From: Actinomycetes bacterium
GTDB taxonomy: Bacteria > Actinomycetota > Thermoleophilia > BMS3ABIN01
Direction: 5' to 3'
Length of the DNA stretch: 61,017 nt
Assembly (NCBI GenBank): GCA_024275795.1
Contig: JAJRYJ010000030.1
Location: 1-61,017, forward strand
Under the pieces are notes generated by a model that saw nothing but the letters and a program-made list of their open reading frames with translations, ran no database searches and had not been told where the DNA came from. A program made the translations under genes and the position numbers. Shown one piece after another: positions 26,921 through 51,078 of this stretch (the stretch's first letter is position 1; each line of letters begins with the position of its first letter).

Positions 26921-27772
26921 CTGGATATCTCTGGTCAGACATCCCTGACAGGAATCATCGGTGATCCTGTTTCCCACAGCCTGTCGCCACGCATGCATAA
27001 CGCCGCCTACGCTGCCATGGGCCTGGATCTCTGTTACGTGCCCTTGCCTGTCAGGCCCGATGACCTGGAGGCGGCGGCAGGGGGCCTGCGCGCCCTGAAC
27101 TTCGTCGGCGCCAACGTCACCATACCGCACAAGGTAAGGATCGCCGGCTTCATGGACAGGCTGCACGACAGCGCCGCGGTTACCGGCGCCGTCAATACCA
27201 TCGTCAACGAAAACGGCATTCTTACCGGCTATAATACTGACGGCCCCGGTTTCATACGGGCTCTTGAGGAAGTCACCTCTCTTGATTACCCGCAGACCGA
27301 GACGGTGATTATCGGCGCCGGTGGCGCCGCCCGGGCGGTAGCGTCCGCACTGGCCGGGCATGGAGTTCCCAGGATAACGATAATCAACCGCACCAGGGAA
27401 CGTGCGCTTGATTTGCAGGATATAATCAGTGGACATTTCAGCGATGTAACTGTCGAGACCGCCCCTCTTGAGGGCGGCCTGGACGCAGTTTCTAGTGGAG
27501 CCGCCTTGATTATCAATGCGACCCCGCTGGGCATGATGGATGACCTAAAGGCAGTTCCCCTCCCGGTCGATAGATTAACGAAAGACCATGTCGTCTGTGA
27601 CCTGGCATATGTGGAGTCCGGAGAGACCCCACTGCAGGAGGCGGCAAGGAAAAAAGGGGCGACAACTTTGGGCGGACTCGGCATGCTTCTTCATCAGGGA
27701 GCTGAGGCTATTCATCTGTGGACCGGCGAGGACCCCCCCATTGATATCATGAGGCGGGCCATTGAACCCTAG
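26921..27772 (+). CDS. aroE: Shikimate dehydrogenase. The start is uncertain; a non-canonical CTG is proposed.
   Basis: The conserved N-terminal GIIGDPVSHSLSPRMHN motif lies upstream of the first ATG (26993). AAGGAGG at 26909-26915 precedes an in-frame CTG at 26921. NRT, GAGGAARA and NATP.GM motifs lie downstream. Confidence 0.8.
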   Translation: MDISGQTSLTGIIGDPVSHSLSPRMHNAAYAAMGLDLCYVPLPVRPDDLEAAAGGLRALNFVGANVTIPHKVRIAGFMDRLHDSAAVTGAVNTIVNENGILTGYNTDGPGFIRALEEVTSLDYPQTETVIIGAGGAARAVASALAGHGVPRITIINRTRERALDLQDIISGHFSDVTVETAPLEGGLDAVSSGAALIINATPLGMMDDLKAVPLPVDRLTKDHVVCDLAYVESGETPLQEAARKKGATTLGGLGMLLHQGAEAIHLWTGEDPPIDIMRRAIEP

Positions 27773-29477
27773 CGAAGCAACATCACGTAAAAACCACACG
27801 AAGCTCAGGCCCATCGGCGAGATTCTCGTCAACAAGGGCATGATCACACGGGACCAGCTGGAAAACGCGCTGGACCAGCAGAAAGAAACCTCCAAGCGCC
27901 TCGGCGAGATCCTTGTGGACGAAGGCATCATCAGCCAGGACCAGCTGAACCTGGCGTTGGCTGAGCGCCTGGGCGTCGAGAGTATCGGCCTTTCCGAGGG
28001 CGATGTCGATTCCCTGGCGGCGACGATGATTCCCGAGAAGCTCGCCCGCCGTTACGGCGCCATCCCCGTCAGGTTCATCGACGAGAACACGCTTCAGGTG
28101 GCCATGGTGGATCCCACTAACGTGTTCGCCATCGACGACCTGCGCATGATGACCGGCTACGACATCAAGCCCGCCATCGCCACTGCGGAAGAGGTCTTCG
28201 AACAGATATCCAAGGTCCACAGGCTTGGCGAGACGGTCGACGAGGAGGAACTGGTTGACGGCGAGATCGGCGAGGCCGAGGAGGAGACGTCATCCGACAT
28301 CCGCGACGTCGCCGCCGAAGCGCCGATCATCAAGCTCGTCAACGGCGTCATCAGCCAGGGTGTGGACGACAGGGCCAGCGACCTGCACTTCGAGCCCCAG
28401 GAGAAGGAGCTCGTGATTCGCTTCAGGGTCGACGGCGTGCTGCACGAGATCATGTCCGTCCCCAAGCGCATGCAGGCCGGCGTCATCTCCCGCCTCAAGG
28501 TAATGGCGGATATCGATATCGCCGAAAGGCGTATCCCCCAGGACGGCCGCATCGGTCTCACGGTAGGCGGCAAGCCCATCGATATCCGCGTTGCTTCCAT
28601 GCCTACTGTCTATGGCGAAAAGATAGTGCTCAGGCTGCTGGACAAGAGCAGCGTCATGCTGAACCTCACTGACCTGGGGTTCGCCGAGAAGGCGCTGGCG
28701 CGCTATGAGAGTTCCTACCGCAAACCCTATGGGGCGATCCTGGTGACGGGACCGACCGGCAGCGGCAAGTCCACCACCCTCTATGCGACCCTGAATGTGC
28801 TCAATAGCAGGGAAAAGAACATCATCACCGTTGAGGATCCGGTGGAGTACCGGCTGGGCGGTATCAACCAGACCCAGATCAATACCAAGGCCGGGCTGAC
28901 TTTCGCCTCGGGTCTCAGGGCCATCCTGCGCTCCGACCCTGACATAGTCATGGTGGGAGAGATCCGCGACCGGGAGACCGCCCAGATCGCCATCGAGGCG
29001 GCGCTGACCGGACACATGGTTTTAAGCACACTGCACACCAATGATGCGCCGGGAGCCCTGACGCGGCTTACGGAGATGGGCGTGGAGCCCTTCCTGACCG
29101 CGTCGGCCATCGAGTGCGTGCTCGCCCAGCGGCTGGCCAGGCGCCTCTGCACCGAGTGCAAGGAAGCTTACGAGCCCACGGATGAGGCTCTCAGGCAGAA
29201 CGGTTTCCCCGACGAGGTCGTCGGGCAGGGCATCAAGCTCTACCGGGCCAAGGGTTGTCCCCGCTGCAATAACACCGGCTACAAGGGCCGCCTGGGGCTC
29301 TACGAGGTCATGCTGGTGAGCGAGGCGATCGAGCGGTTAACGGTAGAGCGGAAAAGTGCCGATGAGATTTCACGGGTAGCACAGGCGGAGGGAATGGTTA
29401 CCCTGCGTGAAGATGGCATCGAGAAGGTCATCAAAGGGATGACTTCGGTGGAAGAGATAGGCCGCGTAATCATCTAG
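27762..29477 (+). CDS. pilB: Type IV pilus assembly ATPase PilB (GspE family) with an N-terminal MshEN-type domain
   Basis: Walker A GPTGSGKST, Asp/His boxes, tetracysteine CxxC...CxxC, and two N-terminal 24-aa RLGxxLVxxG... motifs. Confidence 0.9.
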   Translation: MNPSEATSRKNHTKLRPIGEILVNKGMITRDQLENALDQQKETSKRLGEILVDEGIISQDQLNLALAERLGVESIGLSEGDVDSLAATMIPEKLARRYGAIPVRFIDENTLQVAMVDPTNVFAIDDLRMMTGYDIKPAIATAEEVFEQISKVHRLGETVDEEELVDGEIGEAEEETSSDIRDVAAEAPIIKLVNGVISQGVDDRASDLHFEPQEKELVIRFRVDGVLHEIMSVPKRMQAGVISRLKVMADIDIAERRIPQDGRIGLTVGGKPIDIRVASMPTVYGEKIVLRLLDKSSVMLNLTDLGFAEKALARYESSYRKPYGAILVTGPTGSGKSTTLYATLNVLNSREKNIITVEDPVEYRLGGINQTQINTKAGLTFASGLRAILRSDPDIVMVGEIRDRETAQIAIEAALTGHMVLSTLHTNDAPGALTRLTEMGVEPFLTASAIECVLAQRLARRLCTECKEAYEPTDEALRQNGFPDEVVGQGIKLYRAKGCPRCNNTGYKGRLGLYEVMLVSEAIERLTVERKSADEISRVAQAEGMVTLREDGIEKVIKGMTSVEEIGRVII

Positions 29478-29512: not shown

Positions 29513-30580
29513 ATGGACCTGGTTGATATCCTGGTCGAAGTCCTCGAAAGGGAAGCCTCGGACCTTCATCTGACTGTAGGCTCTCCTCCGATCATCAGAT
29601 TATCGGGCCGGTTGGTAGGCCTCGATTATCCGCGCCTCACCAGCAACGACACGCGCGATCTTATCTACAGTATCCTCTCCCAGGACCAGCGGCAGAGGAT
29701 CGAGAACGAGTGGGAGATCGATTTCTCCTATTCCGTACCGGGCAGGGCGCGTTTCCGTGTCAATGCCTACTTCCAGCGCAACAGCCTGGGGGCGGCCTTC
29801 AGGCTGATACCGGCGCAGATCAAATCGCTTGACGACCTGATGCTGCCGCTGTCACTGCACAAGATGGCGGCCAAGCCGCGAGGATTCGTGCTGGTCACCG
29901 GGCCCACCGGCTCCGGCAAGTCCACGACCCTGGCGGCGCTTATCCAGGAGATCAACGAGACACGCGAGGAACACATCATGACCATCGAGGACCCCATCGA
30001 GTTCCTCTATCGTCACAATAAATCCATCATCAACCAGCGGGAAGTGGGGACGGACACCAAGTCCTTCAACCGCGCCCTCAAGTCCGTGCTCAGGCAGGAC
30101 CCGGACGTGATTCTCGTGGGCGAGATGCGGGACAACGAGACCATGTAGACGGCCCTGACGGCGGCGGAGACCGGCCACCTGGTGTTCGCGACGCTGCATA
30201 CCCAGGACGCGCCGCAGACCATCGACAGGATCATCGACGTCTTCCCGCCACATGAACAGGGTCAGATCCGTGTACAGCTGGCGGCGACGCTGATGGGGAT
30301 CTGCACGCAGCAGCTGCTGCCACATATCGACGGCAACAAGCGCGTCCCCGCCTGCGAGGTGCTGATTCCCACGCCGGCGGTCAGGAACCTGATACGGGAA
30401 GCGAAGACGCACCAGATATATTCGGTTATCCAGACCGGCACCCAGTTCGGCATGCAGACGATGGACGCTTCACTCGCCGAACTCGTTAAACGCGGCATCG
30501 TCAAGAAAGACGTGGCGCTGCGCAAGTCAAGCAATCCCGAAGAGGTGGAACGCCTGATATTGGGCAGGCGTGTCGCCTGA
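29513..30580 (+). pseudogene. pilT: Twitching-motility ATPase PilT interrupted by one in-frame TAG at 30146-30148
   Basis: ORFs 29513-30148 and 30182-30580 are in the same frame. The read-through sequence ...[29 protein letters not shown]... restores the contiguous Walker B / His-box region of PilT. Confidence 0.8.
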
Positions 30581-30600: not shown

Positions 30601-31827
30601 ATGACTATGAGCACATTCGTCTACAAAGTACGCGATGTCCGCGGTATACCCAGCAAGGGAGAGGTGGAGGCTGACAACCGGGATTCCGCCGCCGCCAATC
30701 TCAGGGGCCGTGGTTTTACCATCCTCGATATCAGTGAGAAGAAGGGTGGTTCGTCCATCAAGGCGCAGCTGGCTGAGTCCAAGCGTATCAAGTCGAAGGA
30801 CGTGACCATCTTCTCGCGGCAGTTCGCCACCATGATCAATTCGGGCCTGGCGATGCTGCGCGCCCTCGATATCCTGGAAAAACAGACGCAGAACCACAAG
30901 ATGCGGTCTGTGATCGCTGATACCAAGAACGACGTCGAGGCGGGCGCCTCCCTGTCGGACGCCATGGAGAAGCATCCCAAGGTCTTCAACAGCCTCTATG
31001 TGAGCATGGTGCGCGCGGGCGAGGCCGGCGGCATCCTGGATGATACGCTCAACAGGGTAGCGACACAGCTGGAAGCGGAGGACAGCCTCAAGCGCACGAT
31101 TCGTTCGGCAATGGTGTACCCGTTGCTGATTGCGGCGTTCGCGCTGCTTGTGCTTACGGCGATGATCCTCTTCATCATACCGGTCTTCTCCAAGATGTAC
31201 GCGGACCTGGGCAGCCAGTTGCCGCTGCTGACGCGCATCATGGTGGGCATCAGCAACGTCATGAGAAGCGTCTGGGGCGTCTTCATCATCGGTGGCGCCA
31301 TCGGCGGAATATACGGGATCATGCGCCTGAAACGCACACCCCAGGGTACAGCCGCCTGGGATCGTTTCAAGCTGAAGGTGCCCATGGGTATCGGCGATAT
31401 CGTCCGCAAGGTGATCATGGCACGCTTCTCGCGCACCATGAGCACGCTGGTATCGAGTGGAGTCCCCATATTGCAGGCGATAGACATCACCGGTGAGACC
31501 GCCGGCAACGTGGTCGTCTCGGAAGCGATGGCGGGGGTCAAGGCCAGCGTCAAGGAGGGCCGCCCCATGTCGGAACCCCTGGCGAAGGTCGATGTATTCC
31601 CGGCCATGGTTACGCAGATGATCGCTGTAGGCGAGGAGACGGGAGCAGTCGATACCATGCTCAACAAGATCGCCGACTTCTATGAAGATGAGGTCAACGC
31701 GGCAGTTAAATCACTGACATCGATACTGGAGCCGATCATGATGATCGGCGTCGGCGCCCTGGTCGGAGTGATCGTGATCTCCCTGTATCTGCCGATATTC
31801 AACCTGATGTCGATTCTCGGCTCGTAA
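30601..31827 (+). CDS. pilC: Type IV pilus platform protein PilC (GspF family)
   Basis: Two T2SSF repeats, three TM segments, 408 aa. Confidence 0.92.
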   Translation: MTMSTFVYKVRDVRGIPSKGEVEADNRDSAAANLRGRGFTILDISEKKGGSSIKAQLAESKRIKSKDVTIFSRQFATMINSGLAMLRALDILEKQTQNHKMRSVIADTKNDVEAGASLSDAMEKHPKVFNSLYVSMVRAGEAGGILDDTLNRVATQLEAEDSLKRTIRSAMVYPLLIAAFALLVLTAMILFIIPVFSKMYADLGSQLPLLTRIMVGISNVMRSVWGVFIIGGAIGGIYGIMRLKRTPQGTAAWDRFKLKVPMGIGDIVRKVIMARFSRTMSTLVSSGVPILQAIDITGETAGNVVVSEAMAGVKASVKEGRPMSEPLAKVDVFPAMVTQMIAVGEETGAVDTMLNKIADFYEDEVNAAVKSLTSILEPIMMIGVGALVGVIVISLYLPIFNLMSILGS

Positions 31828-49311: not shown

Positions 49312-49911
49312 ATGTCTAAACGGTCCAAGCCATTCAGGCTTCCCAGAGCCTATTATTATGGAATCATCGGCGCCCTCGGTGGCCTCTGCTATGCGCTTTT
49401 CGCCTATGTCGCCGACCGGTACACTTCTTATGACCTGGCGGTCCTCCATATCTTTGTCGCTCCCGTGGTCGCGGGCATAGTTGCGCTTGTGCTGGGGCGT
49501 GAAGAGGACCATATCCGCAACCAGACTGAACTGCTGGAACGTTCACGCAAGCGCTTCACGTCCATGACCACCTCGGTGATAACCGAGGACGACTGGAGCG
49601 TCAGTTTTCACGATCCCCACATACCCACCTGCTGGGAGGTCAAGGACTGCGACAGGCATGAATGTCCCGCCCACGGGAAACGGCACGTCCGCTGCTGGAT
49701 GGTCGCCGGCACTTTCTGCAGGGGCGAGGTGCAGGGGCAATATGCACAGAAGATCAAGGATTGCTCCAGATGTGAGGTCTACATCGAGGCTCTGGGGGGT
49801 GACCCGCTCAACGAGATCAGCGAGAACTTCAACAGCCTGATATGGGTGCTGGACGAGAAAGGCAAGATGCTCGCGCGGGCCAACGAAGAGCTGCAAGCGA
49901 AATATGACTAG
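49312..49911 (+). CDS. Membrane-anchored Cys-rich (two CW motifs) sensor module; N-terminal part of a split GGDEF/HD-GYP protein
   Basis: Two TM helices, then CWEVKDC-x4-CP...RCWMVAGTFC...DCSRCEVY. Collinear with aa 1-210 of the intact paralog at 51142-52941. Ends in TAG at 49909-49911. Confidence 0.8.
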   Translation: MSKRSKPFRLPRAYYYGIIGALGGLCYALFAYVADRYTSYDLAVLHIFVAPVVAGIVALVLGREEDHIRNQTELLERSRKRFTSMTTSVITEDDWSVSFHDPHIPTCWEVKDCDRHECPAHGKRHVRCWMVAGTFCRGEVQGQYAQKIKDCSRCEVYIEALGGDPLNEISENFNSLIWVLDEKGKMLARANEELQAKYD

Positions 49912-51078
49912 ATGGAGGCGCTGCAGCGGAAGACCCAGGAAGCAGCCGAGACGGATGAGTTGACAGGCCTTAAGAACCGCGGTCATTTTCTGCATCACCT
50001 CAAGCAGGAGTTCAGCAAGGCAAAACGCTTCGGAAAACCGCTCTCGCTGGTCATCGTAGACCTGGAGGGATTCAAGGATATCAACGACGACTTCGGCTAT
50101 CACAAGGGCGACGAAGTGCTCAGAAAACTGGGGATGATGCTCAGGAATGAAGTTGGCCCTCATGATTACGTTGCACGCTACGGCAAAGAGGAGTTCGCCA
50201 TGGTGCTTCCGGAGATGGACGGCATCAAGGCCACCATCCTGGCCCGCAAGCTGCACGGCAAACTCGGCCGGGTAGCCGAGGATACGGAGATCGATGATTC
50301 GTACGTGGCTGCGGTATTCGGCGTAGCGGATTTTCCCGACTGCGCGTCCGACAGCGACAGCCTGCTGTCGGCGGCGGATTCGGCGCTGCTGTTCGCGAGA
50401 CGCAACCCGCAGTCGCGCGTCGCCTATTTCTGCGACCTCAGCGAGACCGAACTGAGCCAGACAGACCTTGATCGTCTCAACAGCCGGCTGGAGGGCGCCA
50501 GCCTCAAAACACTGAATGCCCTCGCCGAGGCCGTCAACGTCAACGATAATTATTCGGGAGAGAATATCGACGATATGGCGCTGATGGCCGTCTCCCTGGC
50601 CCGGGATCTGGGTTTGAACGACGAGCAGGCGGGGGCCCTGGCGCTGGCTACGAGGCTGCATGACATCGGCAAGATAGGCGTTCCCAGCTCTATCCTGGGC
50701 AAGACCGGCAAACTCTCGCCGGACGAGCTTGCGCTGGTGAAACAGCATCCCGAGATCGGCCAGAAGCTGCTCCAGGAGGCCGAACAGATAAAGGACCTGA
50801 TATCGGCCATCCTTTACCACCACGAGCGCTGGGACGGCAAAGGCTACCCGGAACGGCTCAAGGGCGAGCAGATTCCGCTGATGGCCCGCATCGTCGGCAT
50901 TTTCGATGCCTACAGGGCCATGCGCTGCGACCGGCCCTACCGCAAGGCACTCTCCAAGCAGCAGGCGCTGGCGGAACTTAAGAAGGGGGCCGGCAGCCAG
51001 TTCGATCCCAACATCGTCCAGCAGTTCCTTGAACTGCTGGAGAGGGACAGTTGCGATATCGGGGAAAAGGCCAGCTGA
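49912..51078 (+). CDS. GGDEF (degenerate GKEEF) plus HD-GYP protein; C-terminal part of the split paralog
   Basis: The ATG immediately follows the in-frame TAG. GGDEF-domain fold with GKEEF, then HDIGKIGVP...HHERWDGKGYP. Confidence 0.85.
   Translation: MEALQRKTQEAAETDELTGLKNRGHFLHHLKQEFSKAKRFGKPLSLVIVDLEGFKDINDDFGYHKGDEVLRKLGMMLRNEVGPHDYVARYGKEEFAMVLPEMDGIKATILARKLHGKLGRVAEDTEIDDSYVAAVFGVADFPDCASDSDSLLSAADSALLFARRNPQSRVAYFCDLSETELSQTDLDRLNSRLEGASLKTLNALAEAVNVNDNYSGENIDDMALMAVSLARDLGLNDEQAGALALATRLHDIGKIGVPSSILGKTGKLSPDELALVKQHPEIGQKLLQEAEQIKDLISAILYHHERWDGKGYPERLKGEQIPLMARIVGIFDAYRAMRCDRPYRKALSKQQALAELKKGAGSQFDPNIVQQFLELLERDSCDIGEKAS

Follow-up and report, generated by a model that had tools for sequence, protein, structure and literature searches.

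PilT ATPases have been solved from Geobacter (5zfq, 6ojx), Aquifex aeolicus (2ewv, 2gsz) and Pseudomonas aeruginosa (3jvv), and they provide the framework against which any interrupted pilT gene can be judged. In-frame stop codons within otherwise functional-looking genes are known from amber recoding, effected by pylTSBCD or by suppressor tRNAs, and from the nonsense-interrupted genes of draft genomes, which are either young pseudogenes or consensus errors. Oxidative damage in library preparation is, in addition, a documented source of G>T and C>A artefacts (PMC3616734). Here we compare with these systems a pilT gene that is split by a TAG codon. It lies in a window of 61,017 nucleotides (the whole stretch of DNA that was analysed) from contig C3 of a 1.91-Mb assembly, G000, which comprises 123 contigs with 61.6% G+C and is 94% complete. 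The named proteins nearest to its own are those of uncultured Thermoleophilia and Gaiellales.

An interrupted pilT gene in a conserved pilus operon

The relevant features of the window are as follows:

27762 to 29477, plus strand: pilB-like assembly ATPase directly upstream of pilT; intact, with a genuine TAG terminator
29513 to 30145, plus strand: N-terminal 211 codons of pilT (Walker A, Asp box, Walker B), seen in the translation and spanned by the alignments to TIGR01420 and PDB PilTs
30146 to 30148, plus strand: premature TAG, codon 212 of pilT; all 11 relatives have CAG or CAA (Gln)
30149 to 30580, plus strand: C-terminal 143 codons of pilT and its TGA stop (His box, C-terminal domain); frame intact by TIGR01420 and PDB alignments
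30601 to 31827, plus strand: pilus-operon ORF, 408 aa, 3' of pilT; intact
49909 to 49911, plus strand: second premature TAG in the window, splitting a sensor-GGDEF-HD-GYP gene (49312 to 51078) that is contiguous in the sister genome, where the codon specifies Glu

The TAG at 30146-30148 joins an ORF of 211 aa (29513-30148) in frame to an open frame ending at 30580, and is thereby codon 212 of a 355-codon frame, past Walker B and ahead of the His box. When the stop is read as X, the product matches the PilT/PilU family model TIGR01420 with 493 bits (cut-off 319.1) in a single stretch that places residues 3-344 on profile positions 2-343 of 343. It likewise aligns end to end with the solved PilTs (E = 1e-107 to 1e-123), covering residues 5-350 in one stretch with 5zfq, 6ojx, 2ewv and 3jvv. 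Walker A, Asp box, Walker B and His box are collinear in the translation and in the alignment to the solved PilTs. These unbroken alignments, together with the ORF frames, bear out the original prediction that an in-frame TAG interrupts a PilT core of 355 codons; as it stands in the assembly, the ATPase frame that defines membership of the PilT/PilU family is broken at codon 212.

The gene sits in the pilB-pilT-pilC order of PilT systems. The product of 27762-29477 shows a GspE-type match to PilT residues 119-243, and the order of the pilB-like gene and pilT is kept in relatives. Unlike the solved PilTs, the 211-aa product ends before the His box and is without the C-terminal portion of the ATPase domain; given what is known of PilT structure and function, it should hence be inactive. 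The downstream fragment had been judged unlikely to function alone, and we concur: its first in-frame start 3' of the TAG is a GTG at 30182, and the 11 residues upstream of it would be lost. The 20 residues flanking the stop are 95% identical to the sister genome, no second lesion follows downstream, and the local sequence contains no repeat or switch sequence at the stop.

The ancestral codon and the pilT genes of relatives

We found pilT matches in 27 of 31 related genomes, and every orthologue, drawn from the same family and nearby families at 76-92% identity, is uninterrupted. At the 11 orthologous loci of the same family that were read (81-92% identity, no internal stop), codon 212 is CAG in seven and CAA in four, always encoding Gln in the context ...GEMRD(T/N)ETM-Q-TALTA.... 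More distant PilTs have Glu (5zfq) or Lys (an unrelated metagenome PilT) at this position. The view that this is a variable polar position (R, E or S) thus applies to distant PilTs and fails within the family, where Gln is invariant. As all 11 orthologues have CAG or CAA, the TAG, which is one base from their sense codon, is a single C>T change (CAG>TAG), private to this assembly among the genomes compared. This agrees with the earlier view that one point mutation can create the TAG, and the comparison with relatives that had been proposed shows a sense codon here. The search for a second pilT or pilU, likewise proposed, revealed an intact PilT/PilU paralogue at C24:410-1438 that is 48% identical to pilT.

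When proteins were searched for a nearly identical, full-length PilT in some other assembly, the best match reached only 93% identity, so that a second assembly of the species did not emerge. An exact-product look-up of the 211-aa truncated protein yielded no record. A 31-nt pattern across the stop, sought in metagenome and genome collections, matched solely the unrelated PilT with AAG (Lys), which is without nucleotide similarity to this genome.

A genome-wide load of premature stops

The pilT stop is not isolated: the 1.9-Mb draft genome contains at least 32 single-base premature stops, this one included. These were collected in two screens. The first used a codon log-odds model trained on the genome itself, and retained stops flanked on each side by 60 codons of the same frame that are free of stops and coding-like. 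Most such stops mark the boundary to an adjacent gene, whose start codon lies a few codons away at most; in 36 candidates the coding signal continues with no nearby start. Segments of 161 aa around these 36 stops were searched in two relatives, the sister genome G005 and a further genome, G004, and the aligned codons were then read. One contiguous gene crosses the stop in relatives in 23 cases, eight are ordinary gene boundaries, and two are TGA codons conserved in relatives that probably encode selenocysteine; of the last three, C54:882 is unmatched in both relatives, and C39:42852 and C49:23621 resemble conserved non-coding frames.

The second screen was a reciprocal tblastn of coding ORFs between G000 and 1.10 Mb (12 contigs) of the sister genome, with the filter that the interrupted frame be the locally best coding frame on both sides. 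It revealed 24 in-frame stops in G000 over about 258,000 aligned residues and none in the sister genome over about 268,000. Frameshift-like hit pairs numbered four in G000 and two in the sister genome; the excess in G000 is therefore substitutional rather than of the indel type. An origin in long-read-type indel error was accordingly rejected, the frameshift-like events being few (six candidates in one count, and the four against two hit pairs of the comparison with the sister genome in another).

The union of both screens is 32 premature stops, comprising 26 TAG, five TAA and one TGA. Of the 24 stops in the second screen, 15 were also picked up by the first, and capture-recapture suggests about 37 detectable premature stops genome-wide, with probably more in total. 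Neither of the two relatives compared shares any of them. Each affected gene carries one lesion, conservation is unchanged 3' of each stop, and the stops neither gather toward contig ends nor fall on just a few contigs.

The stops strike genes regardless of essentiality. The NCBIfam models for rpoA, nusA, nrdJ (the B12-dependent ribonucleotide reductase), recN and P-II each match in one stretch across the stop, those for rpoA, nrdJ, nusA and recN being equivalog models. Also interrupted are carB, uvrA and genes for a UbiD-like decarboxylase, a molybdopterin oxidoreductase, a ThiF/MoeB-like enzyme and histidine kinases. The rpoA stop lies ahead of the C-terminal domain and that of nusA at codon 99 of 487; the assembly has one copy each of rpoA, nusA and carB. 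The second TAG of the window, at 49909, belongs to the same genome-wide class of lesion as the pilT stop.

As a separate observation on the composition of the bin, a uvrA fragment at C91:1-1227 shares only 83% identity with the main copy of the gene, on C4, and C87:353-905 carries a second Thr-Gly-Tyr-Thr tRNA cluster whose anticodons are duplicated elsewhere. This suggests that a small amount of the sequence in the bin stems from another, related organism.

Substitution spectrum and missense changes

We read the ancestral codon at each premature stop from one or two relatives per site, belonging to other genera, with the following outcome:

Glu in relatives: 17 sites (14 TAG, 3 TAA); implied GAG or GAA, G>T
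Ser in relatives: 3 sites; implied TCG, C>A
Gln in relatives: 1 site (pilT); implied C>T
Trp in relatives: 1 site; implied TGG>TGA
Asp in relatives: 4 sites (one Leu/Asp, one Asp/Asn); not assignable
Variable residue (Gly, Arg, Ala, Val, Pro): 6 sites; not assignable

Thus 20 of the 22 assignable stops are explained by G:C>T:A changes, against 48% expected under uniform substitution (P = 3e-5), and Lys and Tyr codons gave rise to none (P = 9e-5). This dominance of G:C>T:A is the signature of oxidised guanine. The changes are also biased with respect to the coding strand, with 17 G>T against three C>A (P = 0.04). Uniform substitution with the codon usage of the genome predicts 65% TAG, 21% TAA and 14% TGA; since codon usage alone predicts 65% TAG, the prevalence of TAG among the lesions is unremarkable. 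Deamination of the ancient-DNA type (C>T) was considered as the main process and rejected, as only the pilT (Gln) site and the one Trp site are transitions.

If the stops are part of an unselected load, missense changes of the same kind should accompany them; for G:C>T:A, the codon usage leads one to expect 3.6 radical missense changes for every stop. Among single-step codon differences between the sister genome and G000, 303 radical missense G:C>T:A changes point toward G000 and 264 the reverse, an excess of 39 +/- 24 where about 50 are expected; at 1.6 sigma this is not significant alone, and a shift in composition between the genomes confounds it as well. It is compatible with an unselected load of about one substitution per 2 kb. 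The asymmetry of all missense changes from the sister genome to G000 was tried as a test and set aside as indecisive on account of this shift (G000 has higher GC3 and lower GC2), leaving the radical class as the usable, if weak, one.

The composition shift is apparent in its own right across about 212,000 aligned codons. Toward G000 there are 3907 missense changes of the G:C>A:T type, and in reverse 3196, while synonymous sites show the opposite trend (11163 against 12243). These asymmetries point to a shift in proteome composition, with lower GC2 and higher GC3, that is unrelated to the stops.

Is TAG decoded?

The original prediction had raised amber read-through or suppression as a possible account of the pilT TAG, to be checked by a search for CUA tRNAs and pylTSBCD; neither a CUA tRNA nor PylS emerged from the searches. 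Infernal (RF00005) reports 47 tRNAs and ARAGORN in linear mode 49 plus a tmRNA, and among these 49, in an assembly that is 94% complete, none has a CUA or UUA anticodon. Without the -l option ARAGORN missed five tRNAs on C87 and C98, which Infernal and -l recovered and which have ordinary anticodons; at relaxed thresholds it made about 2,500 spurious calls. The sole tRNA that reads a stop codon is tRNA-Sec (UCA) at C14:25151-25242. The best match to the PylS model TIGR02367 scores 22.6 bits against a cut-off of 178, and among the controls the model exceeded its cut-off only in Methanosarcina acetivorans. RF1 (prfA) scores 497.6 bits, above its equivalog cut-off, with no internal stop, and the terminators of 1004 confident ORFs are TGA in 543, TAG in 320 (about 32%) and TAA in 141. 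Since TAG is a common terminator, RF1 is intact and both a CUA or UUA tRNA and PylS are missing, reassignment of TAG and a pyrrolysine system are not supported in this genome.

A distinct pair of genes carries conserved in-frame TGA codons, at C15:20502 in a thioredoxin-like protein (...YKDT-U-PACQ...) and at C22:23009 in a membrane protein (...LGSG-U-CSGS...). Judged by this conservation and the presence of tRNA-Sec, they look like genuine selenoproteins and not lesions.

A looser form of decoding might nevertheless be envisaged, in which an undetected suppressor tRNA, near-cognate decoding or weakened termination lets ribosomes pass UAG and UAA often enough for pilT, rpoA, nusA and the others still to give full-length protein. 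Such read-through would account for hits in essential single-copy genes with frames perfectly conserved downstream, for the fact that 31 of the 32 stops are of the RF1 type (TAG or TAA) with one TGA (P = 0.05 against the 14% expected), and for the alignment of more than half of the stops to Glu in relatives. Yet TAG ends 320 and TAA 141 of the confident ORFs, RF1 is intact, CUA and UUA anticodons and PylS are missing, and the residues aligned with the stops also include Ser, Gln, Trp, Asp, Gly, Pro, Ala and Leu. The bias to TAG and Glu is, moreover, what codon usage combined with G>T mutation predicts, and the stops are absent from all relatives. We therefore regard useful suppression of these stops as very unlikely, and consider it highly improbable that the organism truly carries dozens of in-frame UAG and UAA codons and survives by leaky or suppressed termination without a recognisable CUA or UUA tRNA.

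Origin of the stops

We propose that the pilT TAG probably belongs to an unselected load of substitutions in the assembly, arising likeliest from damage, from low-coverage errors or from minority variants in the consensus. This reading is favoured because a living population could not fix unsuppressed stops in the single-copy rpoA and nusA, nonsense and radical missense changes occur in a ratio that suggests no selection, the sister genome has no such stops, and recoding machinery is lacking. Under it, the family-wide Gln-212 codon CAG would have been turned into TAG by a single C>T change within the genome-wide load, as base errors from damaged templates or low coverage, or minority variants, entered the draft consensus of an uncultured organism. 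The living organism would then most likely have an intact, ordinary pilT, with nothing special at codon 212. From the unselected character of the substitutions we infer that they arose in vitro or in assembly rather than in vivo. Short-read assemblers normally outvote damage errors that are present at a low fraction; hence an artefact would call for low coverage, amplification from a single template or a consensus step out of the ordinary, and there is no record here of any of these. Further points against an artefact are that the coding-strand bias is unpredicted by simple double-strand damage, that the change in pilT is C>T and so falls outside the dominant G:C>T:A class, and that a spectrum biased to G:C>T:A could arise in vivo, MutY being unrecognisable across the family.

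This last point leads to the possibility, unlikely in our estimate but deserving consideration, that the stops are real nonsense mutations from a recent G:C>T:A-biased burst in the sequenced cell or clonal population. The pilT product would then be truly cut after Walker B and the cell non-retracting and possibly hyperpiliated, partly buffered by the intact PilT/PilU paralogue on C24. Searches for MutY in 19 genomes gave no match above about 45 bits in the family of G000, against 130-175 bits in other families of the class, and the family may thus be without the adenine glycosylase arm of 8-oxoG repair. Its absence family-wide fits the spectrum, and a burst is plausible in a MutY-less lineage, here with uvrA and recN also hit; single lesions with fully conserved downstream sequence would mark it as very recent, and the coding-strand G>T bias resembles damage of the non-transcribed strand. 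However, stops in the single-copy rpoA, nusA and carB could not be fixed in a population if unsuppressed, and nonsense and radical missense changes occur in about the proportion predicted for unselected mutation. The sister genome, too, is without MutY, yet has no premature stop in the same set of orthologues. A loss of MutY specific to G000 was rejected as the cause, its absence being family-wide.

Extremely unlikely is a lesion specific to pilT, adaptive or regulatory, in which loss of retraction or phase-like switching was selected in a circuit of c-di-GMP and type IV pili together with the TAG at 49909: the same type of lesion occurs in at least 30 unrelated genes of transcription, repair, nucleotide synthesis and redox metabolism, so that two hits in one circuit and window are expected by chance, the site has no repeat or switch sequence, and all relatives have Gln.

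Thus, among the explanations first offered for the pilT stop, error or variation in a metagenome-derived sequence is the one we favour, and an adaptive hyperpiliated state and context-dependent amber read-through are both weakened by the occurrence of the same kind of lesion in at least 32 genes.

Implications

The pilT TAG is real in the sequence text and has an ordinary explanation, most likely damage or assembly error and otherwise a very recent unselected mutation. It is hence no evidence for a hyperpiliated, non-retracting lifestyle, for amber read-through or for a switch specific to c-di-GMP or pili. Its chief value is as a flag on data quality, the assembly being in use as a species-representative genome. 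A load of about one unselected substitution per 2 kb, as deduced here, would split 2-3% of genes, and annotations, pseudogene counts and metabolic reconstructions drawn from this assembly will mislead, in rpoA, nusA, carB, nrdJ, uvrA, recN and others, unless the reads are re-examined. If, on the other hand, the stops are real and fixed, they would denote either a MutY-less lineage in a mutational burst or an organism that tolerates read-through of stop codons.

Comparison with known systems

Like the amber recoding systems, this genome presents in-frame TAG codons in otherwise functional-looking genes. Unlike them, it has no PylS and no CUA tRNA, its RF1 is intact, TAG is a common genuine stop, and the lesions include TAA and TGA.

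The resemblance to the OxoG artefacts (Costello et al. 2013, PMC3616734) is greater, in that the stops are dominated by G:C>T:A, are evenly spread over contigs and bear no sign of selection. Such artefacts normally occur at low allele fraction and are removed by the consensus, whereas here the stops stand in the consensus; the change in pilT itself, being C>T, is also unlike this class.

With the nonsense-interrupted genes of draft genomes, whether young pseudogenes or consensus errors, the stops share the single-base change, the freedom from further decay, the involvement of many genes and the use of the same codon as a normal stop elsewhere. They differ from these in that the load has been quantified here by means of a sister-genome control (24 against none) and that it is dominated by G:C>T:A changes rather than by transitions.
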